64,000 nucleotides of DNA from an uncultured Lachnospiraceae bacterium. GTDB taxonomy: Bacteria > Bacillota > Clostridia > Lachnospirales > Lachnospiraceae. Below, piece after piece: positions 2,821 to 62,071 of the stretch. The stretch spans positions 10,828-74,827 of the forward strand of contig CALWCS010000182.1 of assembly GCA_944376425.1 (NCBI GenBank), read 5' to 3'. The notes beneath the pieces are model-generated. The model saw only the letters and a program-made list of their open reading frames with translations, was not told the origin of the DNA and searched no databases. Positions within the stretch are counted from its first letter, which is position 1, and each line of letters begins with the position of its first letter. Made by a program: the position numbers and the translations under genes.

Positions 2821-5295
2821 ATGAACAAATTATTTCAGAAAGAAGCTTTTAAGCAGAGTGTGAAAGATAATGTAAGAACATTATACAGAAGAACACTGGA
2901 TGAAGCCACACCACAGCAGATTTTTCAGGCTGTTTCTTATGCGGTAAAAGACGTAATTATCAATGACTGGATGGCAACACAGAAAGCGTATGAAGAACAG
3001 GATCCAAAGACAGTTTATTATATGTCAATGGAATTTTTAATGGGACGTGCTCTGGGAAATAACCTGATCAATCTGACGGCTTATGAACCGGTAAAAGAAG
3101 CACTCTTAGAGATGGGACTGGATTTAAATGCGATCGAAGATCAGGAACCGGATGCTGCATTAGGAAACGGAGGACTCGGAAGACTGGCAGCATGTTTTCT
3201 GGATTCGCTTGCTACTTTGGGATATTCTGCATATGGATGCGGTGTGCGTTACCGTTATGGAATGTTCAAACAAAAAATTGAAGACGGATATCAGGTAGAA
3301 GTTCCGGACAATTGGTTAAAGGATGGAAATCCTTTTGAACTGCGGCGTCCAGAGTATGCCAAAGAGGTAAAATTCGGCGGTTATATCCGTGTAGTATATA
3401 ATGAAAAAACAAAGAGAAACGACTTTGTTCAGGAAGGGTATCAGTCTGTCAGAGCAATTCCGTATGATATTCCGATCGTCGGATATAATAACCATGTGGT
3501 AAATACTCTGCGTGTATGGGATGCAGAGGCAATTAATGAATTCCATCTGGATTCTTTTGATAAAGGAGATTATCACAAAGCAGTAGAACAGGAAAATCTT
3601 GCCAAGAATATTGTGGAAGTACTGTATCCGAACGATAATCACTATGCAGGAAAAGAACTCAGATTAAAACAACAGTATTTCTTTATCTCGGCAAGCGTGC
3701 AGGCAGCAATTGCGAAATATAAGAAAAAACATAGCGATCTCCATAAATTTTATGAAAAAGTAACGTTCCAGCTTAATGATACGCATCCGACCGTTGCCAT
3801 TGCAGAACTGATGAGAATTCTGGTGGATGAGGAAGGAATGGAATGGGATGAAGCATGGGAAGTTACAACAAAGACATGCGCATATACGAACCATACGATC
3901 ATGGCAGAAGCACTGGAAAAATGGCCGATTGAATTATTTTCAAGACTCCTTCCTAGAATTTATCAGATTATTGAAGAGATCAACCGCAGATTTATTATGG
4001 AAATCCAGAAAAAGTATCCTGGAAATCAGGAAAAAATTCGTAAGATGGCAATTATTTATGACGGACAGGTAAAAATGGCACACCTTGCAATTGTTGCGGG
4101 ATATTCCGTAAACGGTGTGGCACAGCTTCATACGGAAATTCTGAAAAATCAGGAATTGAAAGATTTCTATGAGATGATGCCGGAGAAATTTAATAATAAG
4201 ACAAACGGAATTACACAGAGACGTTTCCTGCTTCATGCGAATCCGTTGCTTGCCAACTGGGTGACTGACCATATCGGAAGCGAATGGATCACCGACCTGC
4301 CTCAGATATCAAAACTGAAACTGTTTGTGGATGACAAAAAGGCACAGCAGGAATTTATGAACATCAAATATCAGAATAAAATTCGTCTTGCAAAATATAT
4401 CAAAGAGCATAATGGGATTGATGTAGATCCGCGCTCTATCTTTGACGTACAGGTAAAACGACTTCATGAATATAAACGCCAGCTTCTGAATATTCTTCAC
4501 GTTATGTACTTGTACAATACAATCAAGGATCATCCGGAGATGGACTTCTACCCAAGGACATTTATCTTTGGAGCAAAAGCAGCGGCAGGATATCGCAGAG
4601 CCAAACTGACAATTAAACTGATTAATTCCGTGGCAGATGTGATTAATAATGACAAATCAATCAATGGTAAATTAAAAGTAGTCTTCATTGAAGATTATCG
4701 TGTGTCGAATGCAGAGATCATCTTTGCAGCGGCAGATGTGTCAGAACAGATTTCAACAGCAAGTAAAGAAGCTTCCGGTACGGGAAATATGAAGTTTATG
4801 CTGAATGGAGCACCGACACTTGGAACTATGGACGGAGCCAATGTGGAAATTGTAGAAGAGGTAGGAGAAGACAATGCATTTATCTTTGGTCTGACTGCTG
4901 AACAGGTAATCAACTATGAACAAAACGGCGGTTATCGTCCTATGGACTACTTCAACAATGATCAGGATATCCGCAGAGTATTAATGCAGCTGATCAATGG
5001 AGAATATTCACCGCAGAATCCGGAACTGTTCCGCGATATCTATGATTCTCTGTTAAATACGAACAGCAGTGAGCGTGCAGATACTTACTTTATTCTTGCT
5101 GATTTCAAATCTTATGCTGCTGCTCAAAAACGTGTGGAAGAGGCATACAGAGACGAAACAAGATGGGCAAGAATGGCGATGCTCAATACAGCATGCAGTG
5201 GAAAATTCACAGCGGACAGAACGATTCAGCAGTATGTAGATGAAATCTGGCATTTGGATCATGTGACCGTAGAACCAGATGATATGGAAGAATAA
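2821..5295 (+). CDS. glgP: glycogen/maltodextrin phosphorylase
   Basis: 824 aa. Carries the pyridoxal-phosphate lysine motif EASGTGNMKFMLNGA. A GGAGG RBS lies 5 nt upstream. Confidence 0.95.
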   Translation: MNKLFQKEAFKQSVKDNVRTLYRRTLDEATPQQIFQAVSYAVKDVIINDWMATQKAYEEQDPKTVYYMSMEFLMGRALGNNLINLTAYEPVKEALLEMGLDLNAIEDQEPDAALGNGGLGRLAACFLDSLATLGYSAYGCGVRYRYGMFKQKIEDGYQVEVPDNWLKDGNPFELRRPEYAKEVKFGGYIRVVYNEKTKRNDFVQEGYQSVRAIPYDIPIVGYNNHVVNTLRVWDAEAINEFHLDSFDKGDYHKAVEQENLAKNIVEVLYPNDNHYAGKELRLKQQYFFISASVQAAIAKYKKKHSDLHKFYEKVTFQLNDTHPTVAIAELMRILVDEEGMEWDEAWEVTTKTCAYTNHTIMAEALEKWPIELFSRLLPRIYQIIEEINRRFIMEIQKKYPGNQEKIRKMAIIYDGQVKMAHLAIVAGYSVNGVAQLHTEILKNQELKDFYEMMPEKFNNKTNGITQRRFLLHANPLLANWVTDHIGSEWITDLPQISKLKLFVDDKKAQQEFMNIKYQNKIRLAKYIKEHNGIDVDPRSIFDVQVKRLHEYKRQLLNILHVMYLYNTIKDHPEMDFYPRTFIFGAKAAAGYRRAKLTIKLINSVADVINNDKSINGKLKVVFIEDYRVSNAEIIFAAADVSEQISTASKEASGTGNMKFMLNGAPTLGTMDGANVEIVEEVGEDNAFIFGLTAEQVINYEQNGGYRPMDYFNNDQDIRRVLMQLINGEYSPQNPELFRDIYDSLLNTNSSERADTYFILADFKSYAAAQKRVEEAYRDETRWARMAMLNTACSGKFTADRTIQQYVDEIWHLDHVTVEPDDMEE

Positions 5296-26629: not shown

Positions 26630-26702
26630 GCGCTTTTAGCTCAGTTGGTAGAGCACCTGACTCTTAATCAGGGTGTCCAGGGTTCGAGCCCCTGAAGGCG
26701 CA
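26630..26702 (+). tRNA. tRNA-Lys (anticodon CTT)
   Basis: Hand-folded cloverleaf: acceptor GCGCTTT/AAGGCGC, D arm GCTC..GAGC, anticodon stem CCTGA/TCAGG with loop CTCTTAA, T arm CAGGG TTCGAGC CCCTG. No encoded CCA. Confidence 0.95.
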
Positions 26703-27887: not shown

Positions 27888-28646
27888 ATGAAAAAGGAAA
27901 TTACCCAAAAGATCAGAAAAACAGCGATTATTTTTGCATGGATTTTGGTTTGGGAAATTTTTGCAAAATGGATTGGAAATGATATCTTGATTGCAGGACC
28001 AGTTGATGTGGCAAAAGCGCTCGTCAAAAACTTATTTGAAATAGAATTTTTAAGAGCAGCCGGAAATTCTTTTATTAGAATTTCTCTGGGATTTTTGGGA
28101 GCTTTTCTGATCGGTATTTTTACTGCGTCTGCATCATGGCGTTTCCGAATTTTGGGAGAAATTTTGGAACCAGTGGTGTCTTTGATGAAGACAGTACCGG
28201 TTGCGTCTATCGTGATTTTACTGCTGATGTGGACAACTTCAAAAAATTTATCGATCGCTATCTCTTTTATGGTGACATTCCCTGCAATCTATTTTCAGAC
28301 AATAGAAGGACTAAGTTCTGTAGATACCAAATTGCTGGAGATGGCACAGGTATACGAAATTTCTCCATGGAAAAAAATCTGGTATCTCTACCGCCCGGCT
28401 GTCTTGCCGTATCTTGCCGGAAGCTGCAGGGCTGCTGTCGGAATGGGATGGAAGTCGGGAATTGCTGCAGAAGTGATCGGAGTGCCAGATCATACGATAG
28501 GGGAACGACTTTATATGGCCAAAATTTATCTGGAAACTGCCGACCTTTTCGCTTGGACTATCGTAGTACTGATTTTATCTATGATATTTGAAAAAATAAT
28601 TTTCTGGATATTGAGACGAATTTCAGGAAAGGGCAAAATAGTATGA
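27888..28646 (+). CDS. ABC transporter permease (binding-protein-dependent family)
   Basis: 252 aa with 6 TM segments and an EAA-like loop. Start directly abuts the upstream stop. Confidence 0.85.
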   Translation: MKKEITQKIRKTAIIFAWILVWEIFAKWIGNDILIAGPVDVAKALVKNLFEIEFLRAAGNSFIRISLGFLGAFLIGIFTASASWRFRILGEILEPVVSLMKTVPVASIVILLLMWTTSKNLSIAISFMVTFPAIYFQTIEGLSSVDTKLLEMAQVYEISPWKKIWYLYRPAVLPYLAGSCRAAVGMGWKSGIAAEVIGVPDHTIGERLYMAKIYLETADLFAWTIVVLILSMIFEKIIFWILRRISGKGKIV

Positions 28647-29251
28647 AACTGGAAGTCAGAGAAATAGTAAAATCATATGATGGAAAAACAGTATTGGACC
28701 ATATTAGTCTGACAGTGCAAGAAGGACAGGGGCTATGTGTGATGGGACCTTCAGGATGCGGAAAGACGACATTATTTCGTATTTTGCTGGGACTCGAAAA
28801 ACCAGATGAAGGGATGATAAAGGGAGTACAAAAGTCATTTCTTTCGGCTGTCTTTCAGGAAGACCGTCTGTTGGAGGAGTTTAATGCTGTAGAAAATGTT
28901 TGGATTGTCTGCAATAGGAAATATTCACGGACAGAAATTCAAAAGGAACTTTGTGAGATTTTGCCTAAAGAATCTCTATATCAACCAGTCAGACAGTTAA
29001 GCGGCGGTATGAAGCGGCGGGTAGCACTTGTCAGAGCGATGAAAAAAGAAAGCAGTCTGGTGATCATGGATGAGCCGTTTACGGGACTTGATGAAGAGAC
29101 AAAAAAAATAGTGATCCGATATCTGAAAAAAAAGCTGGAGGGAAAAACCTTTTTATTTTCCACTCATCAGGAAGAAGAAGCAAGGCAGATGGGGACACAA
29201 ATTTATCAAATGTGCCGTAAAACCTCTTGCTTTAGCTATGAGAAGTGTTAA
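28643..29251 (+). CDS. ABC transporter ATP-binding protein
   Basis: Walker A GPSGCGKTT, signature LSGGMKRRV, Walker B LVIMDEP. ATGA overlap with the permease. Confidence 0.9.
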   Translation: MKLEVREIVKSYDGKTVLDHISLTVQEGQGLCVMGPSGCGKTTLFRILLGLEKPDEGMIKGVQKSFLSAVFQEDRLLEEFNAVENVWIVCNRKYSRTEIQKELCEILPKESLYQPVRQLSGGMKRRVALVRAMKKESSLVIMDEPFTGLDEETKKIVIRYLKKKLEGKTFLFSTHQEEEARQMGTQIYQMCRKTSCFSYEKC

Positions 29252-29274
29252 AAAATAGAAAAAAGAAAATAAAA

Positions 29275-29313
29275 AGAGCCATCAGATTTTTCTTTGTTAG
29301 ATCTGATGGCTCT
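29275..29313. terminator. strong hairpin terminator, best U-tract in minus orientation
   Basis: 13-bp perfect stem AGAGCCATCAGAT / ATCTGATGGCTCT. In minus-strand reading it is followed by TTTTTATTTTCTTTTTTC, in plus-strand reading only by TTT. Confidence 0.7.
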
Positions 29314-29330
29314 TTAATGCACCTGATTGT

Positions 29331-29750
29331 CCATTGGATTTTACCTCCATTTTTAATAGCTTCATGAGGAATAATACTTTTTAAAATGGCATTTGAATAA
29401 TTGACTTTTGGTTTCTTAGATTTTTAGGTTTGGCTTGTTATTGGTTTCTTCTTTCGTTCACGCTATAGAAAAGAAATTTTCTATTCCCAGAAGATAAAAC
29501 AAAATATAAAACACGAATTATAAATTTAGTTTCCCATTGGAGGTTACCTTACTTTCTTTAAATTTTTCATTTTAATCTTTTTAGTTTTAAATTAAAATCA
29601 AAAGAATTTTTATAACGTTCCCATTGGAATTTTTCTCACTTTCTAAAATAATACGGTAATTCTATTTAATTTCTGGTGGTTTGTACCTTCCTTTCTTTAA
29701 ATTATGAGATAATAATTTAATATTTCGGTGGTCTCAGTCCTTTCTTTTTT
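29331..29750. repeat. array of 5 (plus 1 weak) degenerate ~26-nt direct repeats
   Basis: Units at 29331-29356, 29533-29561, 29620-29648, 29673-29700 and 29726-29750 (weak unit at 29439-29457). Plus-strand consensus is roughly C(C/T)(A/G)(T/G)TGG-N5-8-CCT(T/C)(A/C)CTTTCTTTAA. Confidence 0.7.
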
Positions 29751-29778
29751 GTTTTTCCTTTGTTCTTTTGATGGCTTT

Positions 29779-29807
29779 ATTATAGCAGTTAATTTTGAAA
29801 ATGTCAA
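29779..29807 (-). promoter_or_regulatory. consensus extended sigma-A promoter on minus strand
   Basis: Reverse complement reads TTGACA ttttcaaaattaacTGc TATAAT (17-nt spacer with TG extension), preceded by an A/T-rich UP-like tract. Confidence 0.65.
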
Positions 29808-29985
29808 TACTAAAAATTGAAAAAAATAAAAAAAATATATATAAAACAGTTAATAATAAATATAAAATATAAATTTTCTGAAAATAACATGTAATATAAA
29901 CAGTATCTATTTTTTGAATCTGACGCTGCATTCTCCAGAAAAATAATAAGAAAGAAAAAAGAAAATAAAGTTGAGGAGAAATCTA

Positions 29986-30014
29986 TTTTCAGGACAGTTG
30001 ATCGGTGCTATACT
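29986..30014 (+). promoter_or_regulatory. possible extended -10 promoter of aldo/keto reductase gene
   Basis: TTTTCA, 17-nt spacer ending in TGc, TATACT. Confidence 0.4.
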
Positions 30015-30051
30015 GAAAAAACAAAGGAAAAGGAAAGGAAGAAAAAGGAAA

Positions 30052-31059
30052 ATGAAAAAAGTAACGCTGGGAAAGACTGGATTAAAAATTTCTAAAATGG
30101 GACTTGGAGGAATACCAATTCAACAGTCTGATACAGAGAAAGTAAAAATATTAATCAGAGCTATGGCTGAGAAAGGTATCAACTATATTGATACAGCAAG
30201 AGGATATACCGTCAGTGAAGCGTATTTAGGAGAAGCACTGGAAGGAATCAGAGACCAATTTGTTCTTGCAACCAAAAGTATGGCGAGAACGAAAGCAGAA
30301 ATGGAGAGGGATATAGAAATTAGTTTACATAATTTAAAAACAGATTATATTGATATTTATCAAATTCATAATCCAAATATGAAACAGTTAGATCAAGTAA
30401 TTGGAACAAATGGAGCATTAGAGGCTTTACAGGAAGCGAAAGCAGCCGGAAAGATAGGTCATATCGGATTGACGGCACATTCTCTGGAAGTATTTGAACG
30501 TGCCCTCGATTTTGAGTGGGTAGAGACTTTGATGTTTCCGTATAACATTGTAGAAAGACAAGGAGAAGAGCTGATGAAAAGATGCCGGGAAAAAAATATT
30601 GGGTTTGTCTGTATGAAACCTTTTGCAGGCGGCGCAATTGAAAATCCTGTTCTTGCCTTGCGTTTTATCTGTTCCAATCCGGATGTCACTGTGGTAATTC
30701 CTGGAATGCATACCGTAAAAGAATTAGAACAAAATTTTAGGGCAACAGAAGAAAAAGAAAGATTGACAGATGAAGAACTTAGGGAGATGGAGCAGATTCA
30801 AAGAGAGCTAGGCAGCAATTTCTGCCGCCGCTGCAATTATTGCGCTCCTTGTACAAAAGGAATCAGCATACCTAATGTATTTTTATTTGAAGGATATTTA
30901 AAACGATATCACCTAGAAGGATGGGCAAGAGAACGATATGCCTCTTTACAGGCAAAAGCAGGCGCGTGTGTGCAGTGCGGAGTCTGTGAAACGCGATGTC
31001 CGTATCATCTTCCGATTCGTGAAATGATGAAACGCTGCGCAGAAGAATTTGGAGAGTAG
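30052..31059 (+). CDS. aldo/keto reductase with C-terminal 4Fe-4S ferredoxin-type domain
   Basis: Start at MKKVTLGKTGLKISKMGLGG (AKR N-terminus). C-terminal CRRCNYCAPC and CVQCGVCETRCP clusters. The ORF track start at 29971 is an upstream extension through K/R-rich junk. Confidence 0.88.
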   Translation: MKKVTLGKTGLKISKMGLGGIPIQQSDTEKVKILIRAMAEKGINYIDTARGYTVSEAYLGEALEGIRDQFVLATKSMARTKAEMERDIEISLHNLKTDYIDIYQIHNPNMKQLDQVIGTNGALEALQEAKAAGKIGHIGLTAHSLEVFERALDFEWVETLMFPYNIVERQGEELMKRCREKNIGFVCMKPFAGGAIENPVLALRFICSNPDVTVVIPGMHTVKELEQNFRATEEKERLTDEELREMEQIQRELGSNFCRRCNYCAPCTKGISIPNVFLFEGYLKRYHLEGWARERYASLQAKAGACVQCGVCETRCPYHLPIREMMKRCAEEFGE

Positions 31060-31198
31060 AAAAGAAAACTTGTACAGAAAAAACATTTCCAAAAAAATAA
31101 AAAATTTTTGAAAAAGTTGAAGATTTATTGGGAATTAAATCGTTATATATTAATGAGATGCATTGCAAAGCAAACTCAAAAGTATCACTGTACAGGGG

Positions 31199-31710
31199 GT
31201 GGGGAGTATCGGCTACAAAGAATATCTGGCAGAATTGATAGATCAGTATGGAAGTCTGGTTTACTCCATCTGCTACAGGATTACAAACAATTATTTTGAT
31301 GCGCAGGATCTGACACAGGAAACTTTTTGACCGTTTACAAAAACCTTCCCACCTTCGACGGCAAAAATGAAAGAGCCTGGATCAGTACAATTGCCACAAA
31401 TAAATGTCTGGATTATCTGAAGATGGCTGGAAGAAAGATGCTCCCCACGGAAGATACTTACTTTCAAGTGATAGAAAGTAAAGAAAACAGTCCGGAACAG
31501 ACAGTTCTGGACCAACATGTACAGGAAGAATTCTATAAGCTATGCAAAAGCCTAAAGCCCCCTTATGATGAGATTGCTGTCGATTATTTCTGTCAGGAAA
31601 TGACAGTGGAAGAAATCGCACACAAAAAAGGAAAAAAAGTAAAAACAGTGCAGACACAGATTTACCGGGCAAAGGCAATGCTGAAAAAGCTTTGGGGAAA
31701 GGAGGCATAA
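31199..31710 (+). pseudogene. ECF-type sigma-70 family factor split by a 1-nt frameshift in a T5 run
   Basis: The N-terminal frame encodes YKEYLAELIDQYGSLVYSICYRITNNYFDAQDLTQETF and then hits TGA at 31328-31330. The -1 frame continues (L)TVYKNLPTFDGKNERAWISTIATNKCLDYLK through region 4. One extra T in run 31324-31328 restores ETFLTVYKNL. The 5' start is uncertain (GTG at 31199 or TTG at 31163). Confidence 0.7.
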
Positions 31711-31712
31711 CG

Positions 31713-32150
31713 ATGGGAGAAAGTCATATTAATGAGGAGATGATGGAAAAATTTCTAACGGGGCATGCAACGAATGAGGAAAAAATCAGGATATTAACCC
31801 ACGCTTCTTCCTGTGAATTTTGCTCAGAACGTTTAATGCTGCTCAATGCGAAAGAAAACCCCATGGCTATGCCGCGAAATCTAAAAGAAAGCATTTTGAC
31901 GGGAACAGAACGGATCATTCCGAAATCTCCGAAAAAGCAATTTTGGTTTTACAGCATGAAAGTATGTGCAGCGGTATGCGCGGCAGTGATTCTTCTGTTT
32001 GTGATGCCTTTTGGAGGGCAGACAGTAAGAGAAATATCAACTCAGAATGTGCAGACACAGACGCGGGAACCAAAAGAAAGCCTGACACAAAAACTTGGGG
32101 GCGCTGTAGACAGACTGACATGGCAGTTCTACACAGGAGTAAAAAAGTAA
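31713..32150 (+). CDS. zinc-binding anti-sigma factor (ZAS type) with one TM segment
   Basis: AGGAGG RBS, HxxxCxxC motif (HASSCEFC) and a TM segment VCAAVCAAVILLFVMPF. Immediately follows the sigma gene. Confidence 0.75.
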   Translation: MGESHINEEMMEKFLTGHATNEEKIRILTHASSCEFCSERLMLLNAKENPMAMPRNLKESILTGTERIIPKSPKKQFWFYSMKVCAAVCAAVILLFVMPFGGQTVREISTQNVQTQTREPKESLTQKLGGAVDRLTWQFYTGVKK

Positions 32151-61981: not shown

Positions 61982-62055
61982 CGAAGCGTGGCTCAGTTTG
62001 GTAGAGCGCTGCGTTCGGGACGCAGAGGTCGTGGGTTCGAATCCCGTCGCTTCGA
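61982..62055 (+). tRNA. tRNA-Pro (anticodon CGG)
   Basis: Hand-folded cloverleaf: acceptor CGAAGCG/CGCTTCG, anticodon stem CTGCG/CGCAG with loop TTCGGGA (G37), T loop TTCGAAT. No encoded CCA. Confidence 0.93.
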
Positions 62056-62071
62056 CTCCTTGGCAGGGGCG

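Follow-up and report, generated by a model that had tools for sequence, protein, structure and literature searches.

A conserved RNA gene with repeated ribosome-binding-like modules in uncultured gut Lachnospiraceae

What is encoded in a gap between two genes when the opposite strand carries a complete promoter, an intrinsic terminator and no protein-sized gene? We addressed this question for a 64,000-nt stretch of DNA (hereafter the window; contig CALWCS010000182.1) from an uncultured Lachnospiraceae bacterium. In this window, an 800-bp gap separates two plus-strand genes, one for the ATPase of an ABC transporter and one for an aldo/keto reductase (AKR). A first examination of the letters alone (the original prediction) had proposed that the gap holds an orphan unit carrying repeated modules similar to extended Shine-Dalgarno (SD) sequences. 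Our analysis identifies the minus-strand interval as a stand-alone gene for an A-rich RNA of ~510 nt, running from ~29772 to the terminator at 29315-29256. The known occurrence of this RNA unit is limited to a small clade of uncultured gut Lachnospiraceae. We tentatively propose, with a probability of about 0.4, that it is a regulatory RNA with a small structured core, and that the modules around this core truly serve to load ribosomes, in the manner of STAB-SD sequences and minigenes. Both the production of the RNA and its binding to ribosomes are predicted here from the DNA. To our knowledge, almost no regulatory RNAs are known in uncultured gut Lachnospiraceae, and the unit adds a strongly selected, unannotated RNA gene to these abundant bacteria.

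A conserved transcription unit on the minus strand

The RNA unit is delimited by the following features (strand in brackets).

28643-29251 (+): ABC-transporter ATPase gene, the neighbour on the terminator side, convergent to the RNA unit
29256-29315 (-): intrinsic terminator, with a 15-bp stem (29315-29301/29287-29273), a 13-nt loop and a U-tract (29272-29256)
29779-29807 (-): sigma-A-type promoter, with -35 TTGACA (29807-29802), a 17-nt spacer and -10 TATAAT (29784-29779)
29808-29900 (-): conserved AT-rich region upstream of the promoter, with UP-element-like T-tracts and the conserved ATTATTAACTG
30052-31059 (+): AKR gene, with its true start at ATG 30052, the neighbour on the promoter side

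The promoter matches the consensus at 12 of 12 positions, with the TG of an extended -10 at the end of the spacer (29787-29786), and the promoter scan returned no other such site within 28500-30500. The TGACA of the -35 box, the TG and the TATAAT are invariant in all eight lineages that carry the unit (alignment A5, see below). For the first T of TTGACA, invariance could not be confirmed. The minus-strand promoter described in the original prediction is upheld. Transcription would start at ~A29772, judging by the position of the promoter. The AT-rich region upstream is kept across the eight lineages (A5 columns ~20-95), and conservation falls further upstream.

The terminator is a perfect 15-bp inverted repeat (fold of -22 kcal/mol, z = -5.4), with UUUUUAUUUUCUUUUUUC directly 3' of the hairpin on the minus strand. 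It had been described as a 13-bp hairpin; the hairpin and its minus-strand U-tract are confirmed, but the stem is two base pairs longer. The stem is conserved, with one compensatory change from G-C to A-U in L067, and the U-rich tail is present in all lineages. Our terminator scan was limited to loops of at most 8 nt, and did not return this hairpin because its loop has 13 nt. Promoter and terminator thus lie on one strand, with hexamers 17 nt apart, inside the usual range of 16-18 nt, and a hairpin followed by a U-tract, and both are kept in the eight lineages. The transcribed interval has 45% A and 28% U. Its only minus-strand open reading frames (ORFs) of at least 30 amino acids, 29697-29807 and 29734-29931, both begin upstream of the predicted transcription start, in agreement with the earlier remark that this strand lacks a protein-sized ORF.

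We searched for homologues by exact-protein look-ups, starting from the AKR, the ATPase and proteins homologous to them, and by one scan each of genomes and metagenomes. Together these identified eight distinct lineages with the RNA unit, all of them metagenome-assembled genomes of uncultured Lachnospiraceae or "Eubacteriales".

Lineage 1: the window species, also L001-L006
Lineage 2: L009-L012, L032
Lineage 3: L063
Lineage 4: L016-L019, L031, L043, L052
Lineage 5: L027
Lineage 6: L065, L066
Lineage 7: L059, L061, L062
Lineage 8: L067-L069

Alignment A4 comprises five of these lineages and alignment A5 all eight. The genome scan, with an 18-mer, gave 15 matches, of which only three were true homologues (L027, L031, L032). 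The match in L026 fell in a coding region, and the remaining ones came from unrelated phyla and had no significant nhmmer match. Only two true matches resulted from the metagenome scan with another 18-mer, both in a single species that was already known to carry the unit. Phage and plasmid collections gave no match (blastn, at distant sensitivity). Pattern scans of viral contigs gave none with a 17-mer and 72 with a 15-mer, none of them upheld by nhmmer. A profile of the element found no second copy in the whole window (nhmmer). In L020 and L022, where the AKR is 72-80% identical and its context rearranged, there is no RNA unit at that position.

The genes next to the unit change from one lineage to another. 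On the terminator side we found an ABC ATPase, a Fer4 protein or an amidohydrolase, convergent to the unit every time; on the promoter side, the AKR, a TatC/TatA cluster or DUF6788. Since neighbours differ on both sides, the RNA unit is independent of them. The conserved stretch extends from ~100 nt upstream of the minus-strand -35 to the terminator on that strand. These limits coincide with those of the transcription unit, which indicates that it is self-contained and reads on the minus strand.

Selection on the unit is strong. Between lineages it is 77-95% identical at aligned positions (64-94% counting gaps), i.e., better conserved than the adjacent permease and ATPase genes (63-79% nucleotide identity) and their four-fold degenerate sites (28-60%). 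Within the window species, variation in the 512-nt RNA is confined to a single column, at the start site; the count in flanking genes is 0-15 columns per kb. The 278-bp spacer from the RNA start to the AKR start (29774-30051) has 14 variable columns, made of eight single-nucleotide polymorphisms and one 6-bp indel. This spacer is a hot spot of polymorphism within the species.

No ORF of more than six codons is conserved across lineages on either strand, which rules out a larger conserved ORF. The absence of such an ORF, together with conservation above that of the flanking genes, rules out a decaying gene or a neutral spacer; there was no rRNA match either, so that an rRNA-operon remnant is discarded as well. 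None of the sequence-level outcomes that the original prediction had named as fatal to it was observed: there is no decayed gene and no rRNA remnant, the modules are conserved, and no Rfam family matches.

The Rfam result comes from the covariance models of Rfam 15: at the gathering threshold, no family matched the interval in the window, and none matched it in six homologous loci. The picture of an orphan unit of ~0.5 kb, strongly promoted and terminated on the minus strand and belonging to no Rfam family, therefore stands. At E <= 10, the interval gave weak sub-threshold matches only, and LhrC (RF00616) was the only family with a near-threshold E-value. LhrC resembles the unit in being a Firmicute small RNA with SD/anti-SD complementarity and a terminator hairpin. 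We rejected membership of this family: the match, mainly over the terminator, falls on the opposite strand and reaches 25.5 bits, where the gathering threshold is 110.

This plus-strand match is relevant to another proposal, in which the opposite strand would carry an array of mimics of the 16S rRNA 3' end that bind the SD sequences of mRNAs, in the manner of CU-rich LhrC/RsaE-type small RNAs. The units do read TTGGAT...ACCTCC...TTTCT on that strand, like the 16S tail, and the LhrC match at 29255-29366 (E = 0.22) points the same way. Yet this match is driven by the terminator hairpin, we found no conserved plus-strand promoter, and the hairpin would halt transcripts of the ABC operon short of any unit. 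The polarity of conservation is that of the minus strand. We thus consider the plus-strand reading, raised in the original prediction, scarcely credible.

It is also very improbable that the region has no function as RNA and is a DNA-level element (protein-binding repeats, an operon insulator) or an insertion remnant. One could invoke the odd-length palindromes TCCAATGGA, AAATGCCATTT and TTTTCAGAAAA, and the exact direct repeats that flank the unit, of 17 nt in the window and, with another sequence, of 15 nt in L009, a length that none of 500 shuffles matched. But the flanking repeat is missing in six lineages, and the collections of phages, plasmids and viruses gave no match. Moreover, no feature is better conserved than the promoter and the terminator, which are correctly oriented, and both the compensatory change in the terminator and a covarying pair (see below) operate at the RNA level.

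Modules complementary to the 16S rRNA tail

The transcript contains the following modules and conserved blocks, from 5' to 3'.

29717-29745 (-): module A, AGAAAGG, then (C/A)UG AGA CCA CCR AAA YAU UAA; the SD-like tract abuts (C/A)UG
29673-29698 (-): module B, AAAGAAAGGAAGGUACAAACCACCAG; the strongest SD-like tract, without start codon and with CCA in place of AUG
29610-29645 (-): module C, UAGAAAGUGAG, N, UUCCA and the mini-ORF AUG GGA ACG UUA UAA (29624-29610)
29597-29607 (-): pyrimidine block, the conserved AUUCUUUUGAU
29526-29560 (-): module D, AAAGAAAGUAAGGUAACCUCCA and the mini-ORF AUG GGA AAC UAA (29537-29526); holds the anti-SD core ACCUCC
29446-29495 (-): structured core, a UCUUCU/AGAAGA closing helix around the hairpin AUAGAAAA-loop-UUUUCUAU and the invariant unpaired AGCGUGAACGAA
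29364-29394 (-): two invariant blocks, AAAUGCCAUUUU (29394-29383) and GUAUUAUUCCUCAU (29377-29364)
29314-29348 (-): module F, GGAGGU (29348-29343), a 9-nt spacer and AUG GAC AAU CAG GUG CAU UAA (29334-29314)

The original prediction had seen here a set of degenerate direct repeats. A repeat search did return a family of four 27-nt copies (D2; at 29328, 29531, 29618 and 29670) that are 67-81% identical. As generic similarity this is not above chance, since 82 of 300 dinucleotide shuffles reached an equal or larger family; we therefore leaned on motif enrichment and orthology. Specific motifs are indeed enriched. AGAAAG occurs four times (0.59 expected). Three of the five matches to YCCRATGGRM in the whole 64-kb window lie in one 310-nt stretch of the unit, and none of 100 shuffles reached five. 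Similarly, three of the seven matches to CCAATGG in the window are inside the unit. The repeats thus hold as specific motifs but not as generic repeat similarity above chance.

The pairing of the modules was computed with a generic Firmicute 16S tail (GAUCACCUCCUUUCU), which is an assumption, as the organism's own 16S rRNA lies outside the window. Five sites within 514 nt pair with this tail, with energies of -9.0 to -13.9 kcal/mol. The median SD energy of predicted genes in the window is -10.8 kcal/mol (quartiles -12.5 and -9.3), so the modules equal real ribosome-binding sites in strength. In 8/8 lineages, the five main modules (A, B, C, D and F) are conserved in number and order, and 39 of the 40 module-by-lineage combinations retain a complementarity of -9 to -14 kcal/mol. 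The extended-SD modules described earlier are therefore confirmed, against the generic tail, in every lineage.

The modules share a layout. A purine tract (AGAAAG and a GG-containing core) is followed by six nucleotides (seven in A), by CCA, and then by AUG in modules C, D and F or by CCA/CCG in modules A and B. Next come G/A-R-A, a hypervariable triplet and UAA. This fixed layout, the anti-SD-like tracts within the RNA and a structured core with one covarying pair (see below) had gone unnoticed in the original prediction. In C, D and F, the AUG stands 8-10 nt after the SD core, the SD tract ending 7-8 nt before it, and an in-frame stop follows 3-6 codons after the AUG; this holds in 8/8 lineages. 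The format of a minigene (an SD, a start at 5-10 nt, at most eight codons and a stop) is thus found in these three modules throughout. They encode the mini-ORFs noted previously, MGTL at 29624, MGN at 29537 and MDNQVH at 29334. The only length change inside any mini-ORF is of 3 nt, and a single stop has changed, from UAA to UGA.

The individual modules vary in different ways. Module A has pairing energies of -10.5 to -10.9 kcal/mol across the eight lineages, with CUG in the window and L009 and AUG in the six others. Module B pairs at -13.9 kcal/mol in the window and at -10.1 to -13.9 across the eight lineages, with GGAAGGUACA invariant. Module C stays at -9.4 to -9.6 kcal/mol despite replacements of GUGAG by CAGG or UAGG. 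Its mini-ORF reads AUG GGA NNN (UUA) UAA, i.e., three or four codons, with ACG, ACA, AAG, CAG or CGG as third codon, and AUG and in-frame UAA are present in 8/8 lineages. In module D, AUGGGA and UAA are invariant in the eight lineages, the third codon takes seven different triplets, and pairing is ~-9 kcal/mol in seven of the eight. Module F pairs at -10.7 to -12.6 kcal/mol. The 15-nt UCCAAUGGACAAUCA across its mini-ORF start is invariant; codons 4 and 5 vary (CAG/CAA and GUG/GUA/UUU), and the stop is kept in 8/8 lineages, as UAA in seven and UGA in L063. Outside the modules, AAAUGCCAUUUU and GUAUUAUUCCUCAU, the latter with an anti-SD-like UUCCUC, are invariant both in the five lineages of A4 and in the eight of A5, as are the further blocks AUUCUUU and UUUUCUAUAGCGUGAACGAA.

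The strength of the SD, its spacing, the AUG and the stop are kept while the interior codon drifts. An accessible and strong SD that lies 8-10 nt before an AUG will attract 30S subunits. Hence, ribosome loading itself is the simplest property that could be under selection. Of the roles suggested in the original prediction (a decoy for 30S subunits or RNA-binding proteins, an array of mini-ORF ribosome-loading sites, an anti-SD mimic on the opposite strand), mini-ORF loading fits best. We propose that modules A, B, C, D and F would pair with the 16S rRNA 3' tail, so that 30S subunits or ribosomes would load onto the transcript at several points. In C, D and F, initiation would occur at the AUG 8-10 nt downstream and termination 3-6 codons on, the sequence of the peptide being irrelevant. 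Modules A and B would bind 30S subunits without productive initiation, like STAB-SD sequences. Loading would protect the RNA, remodel it, or both. It would also make the conserved blocks outside the SD modules (the core at 29495-29446, AAAUGCCAUUUU and GUAUUAUUCCUCAU) accessible or mask them, and these blocks would be the carriers of the regulatory activity.

Each half of this proposal has a known counterpart. The STAB-SD of cry3A in Bacillus thuringiensis binds 30S subunits, directs no initiation and blocks RNase J1 (PMC4113751). Modules A and B resemble the STAB-SD of the cry3A, hbs and aprE leaders in having SD tracts of -10 to -14 kcal/mol without a functionally spaced start, on the generic tail. 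However, a STAB-SD is a single site in the 5' untranslated region of a protein-coding mRNA. Here there are five or six sites, three of which carry an AUG at functional spacing, and no protein gene; no cistron of more than six codons is conserved downstream. As for minigenes, ribosomes translate those of 3-8 codons, with release of very short peptidyl-tRNAs (PMC2490762). The succession of SD, AUG, few codons and stop is common to modules C, D and F, to the minigenes of phage lambda bar and to synthetic 3-8-codon minigenes. Those known minigenes are of phage or artificial origin and inhibit translation when peptidyl-tRNA hydrolase is limiting, whereas the array described here is chromosomal, conserved and under purifying selection, with extra constraints around the AUG and no phage link found. 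We found no described architecture, in the literature searched, that combines a conserved array of ribosome sites or minicistrons with anti-SD-like tracts and lacks a protein gene.

If the RNA is made and loaded with ribosomes, it would be a natural RNA selected for ribosome binding rather than for protein coding. The proposal, if true, would unite the STAB-SD stabiliser, phage minigenes and the SD:anti-SD mimic of OLE RNA, so far seen separately. It would also offer a compact system for studying the interplay of 30S binding, very short ORFs and RNA decay in Firmicutes.

A messenger for the peptides themselves, i.e., a polycistronic mRNA with MGX, MGXL, MDNQ(V/F)H and MRPPKY as its products, seems very unlikely indeed. 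Polycistronic operons of small peptides exist, e.g., the yrzI operon of B. subtilis (PMC12067863). Starts and stops are conserved, and mini-ORF F of L016 differs from that of the window by two synonymous changes only (CAG to CAA and GUG to GUA). But the third residue varies freely (N, T, R or S in module D; T, K, Q or R in module C), F shows a change from V to F, and a product of 3-6 residues with such a position is hardly one to be selected. Module A in the window starts with CUG without usable SD spacing, and nucleotide invariance goes beyond the needs of coding.

Several observations weigh against ribosome loading as a sufficient account, and they fall in two groups. The first concerns the strength of the signal. 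The whole-window minus strand has ~2 sites per kb at -9 kcal/mol or better, and the density in the unit is just 2-5 times this background; the energies rest on a generic 16S 3' end and not on the organism's own. Short ORFs are weakly significant because stops are frequent in an A/U-rich RNA (~9% of codons, our estimate from base composition). The GG cores are also partly paired in the predicted ensembles, although the AGAAAG tracts are open in them and the AUGs of C and D lie in small loops. The second group concerns constraints that plain translation leaves unexplained: the invariant CCA before each AUG, the second codon fixed as GGA or GAC, the 15 invariant nucleotides of module F, and the layout CCA-CCR-RAA-NNN-UAA that modules A and B keep without a usable start. 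These constraints suggest an additional reader of the sequence, and they limit the probability of ribosome loading to the value given above.

Structure and other readers of the sequence

Neither whole-RNA nor consensus folding revealed an ornate structure; apart from the core helix and the terminator, only a few short helices were predicted. The fold of the whole RNA has z = -2.0, largely due to the terminator, and the fold energy of the structured core is unexceptional (z = -0.44). The closing pair of the core in the RNAalifold consensus covaries, being U-A in five lineages, U-G in one and C-G in two. The stem of its hairpin is kept, the loop varies in length and sequence, and a 20-nt block in the core is invariant. 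This core takes in the weak repeat unit reported earlier at 29439-29457, which therefore belongs to a separately conserved block but is not a clear SD module. Elsewhere, the invariant 5' end CAUCAAAA (29773-29766) is predicted to pair with AUUCUUUUGAU (RNAalifold helix 1), without covariation, and the blocks at 29364-29394 are predicted to pair with sequences of modules D or F. RNAalifold also pairs ACCACC of module A with GGAAGGU of B, and ACCUCCA of D with UGGAGGU of F. The pairs of these last two predicted helices hardly vary between lineages.

Such pairings suggest an alternative in which the RNA is structured and its internal SD:anti-SD duplex mimics bind a ribosome-associated protein, with no translation involved. 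The duplexes would be A:B, D:F and one between UUCCUC and either GGAGG or AUGGGA. The precedent is OLE RNA, in whose P6 stem an anti-SD copy, CCUCCU, pairs with an SD-like AGUAGG and is bound by bS21 (PMC12054373); AGUAAGG-UA-ACCUCC of module D resembles this stem. OLE RNA is a non-coding RNA of ~600 nt of anaerobic Bacillota. The present RNA likewise holds anti-SD-like tracts (ACCUCC, ACCACC and UUCCUC) together with SD-like ones (AGUAAGG, GGAGGU and GGAAGGU), although it has several SD-like sites instead of one, start codons after them, and no ornate conserved structure. The D:F helix is the canonical ACCUCC/GGAGGU. Overall, 95% of the cells of the predicted helices are paired, against 39-53% with slid partners, and the change of CCUCC to UUUCC in module D of L059 and L067 still allows pairing with GGAGG through G-U. 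The covariation in the core helix is also in favour of a structured RNA. On the other hand, nearly all pairs in these helices are invariant, only 4 of the 96 predicted pairs changing on both sides, and the helices are short (2-7 bp) in an RNA with this much A and with the modest z-scores given above. We found no match to OLE RNA (RF01071) even at E <= 10, and rejected membership of that family. Nor would duplex mimicry explain the conserved AUGs at SD-appropriate spacing and the conserved stops. We regard it as doubtful. For the second layer of constraint, OLE RNA is the most instructive known analogue.

The additional reader could also be a translational regulator. In a sponge of the CsrB/RsmZ/CrcZ type, the modules would be decoys that titrate CsrA or another protein recognising initiation regions. 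The unit resembles these sponges in being a stand-alone RNA of a few hundred nt, with its own strong promoter and terminator and with five or six copies of RBS-like purine motifs separated by linkers that vary in length and in sequence. Constraint around the AUG (YCCAAUGGRA) would fit recognition by a non-ribosomal reader, and the motifs overlap SD-like sequences, where CsrA binds (PMC6546359). The counts of the GGA motif tend to speak against it: the RNA has 8-10 per ~510 nt, against ~5 expected from base composition (a hand estimate) and 13-22 in CsrB/CsrC. The motifs lie mostly outside hairpin loops in the predicted ensembles and several are lost in single lineages; module C has none in its SD part in the window and L009, and that of module B is lost in L067. 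In Firmicutes, the antagonist of CsrA is the protein FliW, and small RNAs are not known to play this role. The CsrA-type GGA binder mentioned in the original prediction is accordingly weak, and we judge a sponge unlikely.

The target of titration could instead be the ribosome. An abundant and possibly nutrient-regulated chromosomal decoy RNA, with five conserved extended SD sites and three minicistrons, would titrate 30S subunits by their anti-SD tails, or a reader of the SD:anti-SD duplex such as bS21, and so set the global capacity for translation initiation in these bacteria. As an addition, very short peptidyl-tRNAs might tie up initiator tRNA or tRNA-Gly. We found no cellular RNA with this mode of action in the literature searched, and hold such a decoy to be improbable. 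A search for base-pairing targets among the 49 predicted gene starts of the window (RNAduplex) returned unrealistic long-loop duplexes and was dropped.

The position of module F raises yet another option. In 8/8 lineages, its stop codon touches the terminator stem or overlaps the beginning of it, and F has the best SD (GGAGGU, at a spacing of 9-10 nt). A ribosome finishing mini-ORF F on the 5' arm could then decide between termination and read-through antisense to the ABC operon. In support of this, the unit always faces, in convergent orientation, the 3' end of one and the same NMT1-type ABC operon, whatever the last gene of that operon. Still, kept synteny is the default expectation among such close relatives, no regulated gene follows on the same strand, and the other ~400 nt, equally conserved, would be left unexplained. 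Coupling of transcription and translation is also weak in Bacillus. We consider a translation-sensing terminator distinctly unlikely. Leader-peptide attenuators (erm, cat, trp-type) have, like module F, a short ORF with a strong SD that ends at the foot of a terminator. They were rejected because no lineage has a downstream gene on the same strand and four or five further modules lie upstream.

Other repeat-based systems were discarded as well. A type III toxin-antitoxin (ToxI-like) locus does not agree with the start-to-start spacings of the D2 copies (52, 87 and 203 nt) or with the convergent next genes. TRF returned only short low-complexity arrays in the region. CRISPR-like or iteron readings were ruled out on spacing, the lack of tandem structure and the lack of partner genes. 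The unit thus belongs to no described family tested and is, by type, a regulatory RNA gene of bacteria.

Control elements and neighbouring genes

A CodY-box-like palindrome is located in the AT-rich region upstream of the promoter.

29872-29886 (palindrome): CodY-box-like site, ~65-80 nt upstream of the -35 of the RNA unit and ~100 nt upstream of the AKR promoter

Its sequence, AATTTTCTGAAAATA, differs by one mismatch from the CodY-box consensus, AATTTTCWGAAAATT, and is the best match in the window. TTTTCWGAAAA is kept in 7/8 lineages, and a similar TTTTCTGAAAA occurs at the AKR promoter in L016 and L020. Such a site may place the RNA, the AKR operon or both under nutrient control. The likely AKR promoter itself lies within 29986-30058 (+), with TTTTCA, a 17-nt spacer and TGnTATACT, and is conserved in relatives. 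In the window species, ~6.5 tandem AAAGGA units form part of a purine leader just before the AKR start; they are not conserved in L009 and L016.

The unit is bracketed in the window by an exact 17-nt direct repeat, AGAAAAAAGAAAATAAA (29257-29273 and 29953-29969), and in L009 by a different 15-nt repeat, AAAAAGAGAGAGGAA (3190-3204 and 3979-3993). The six other lineages have no bracketing repeat. These repeats could be the scar of an insertion or recombination event, or a coincidence in purine-rich DNA.

The RNA unit remains beside the ABC operon despite swaps of the neighbour on the promoter side. In some lineages this neighbour is a TatA/TatC cluster with a 424-aa protein (L059 3479-6458, L061, L062, L067); mobile-looking DNA with DUF6788/DUF3990 genes is found at L063 4770-5450 and L020 1-730. 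L020 has no RNA unit upstream of the AKR. The NMT1-type ABC operon itself has an extra last gene in some lineages, for a 447-aa multi-Fer4 protein or an amidohydrolase of ~385 aa (L009 1867-3210, L016 1866-3029, L063 2908-4080, L065 2493-3644). This gene is absent in the window species.

The only RNA genes recognised in the window are tRNA-Lys(CTT) (26630-26702, +) and tRNA-Pro(CGG) (61982-62056, +). Downstream of the AKR (31163-32150, +), all lineages encode an ECF-type sigma factor (Sigma70_r2/r4_2), a putative anti-sigma factor of 145 aa and a protein of ~223 aa. With the AKR, these genes form a conserved four-gene block.

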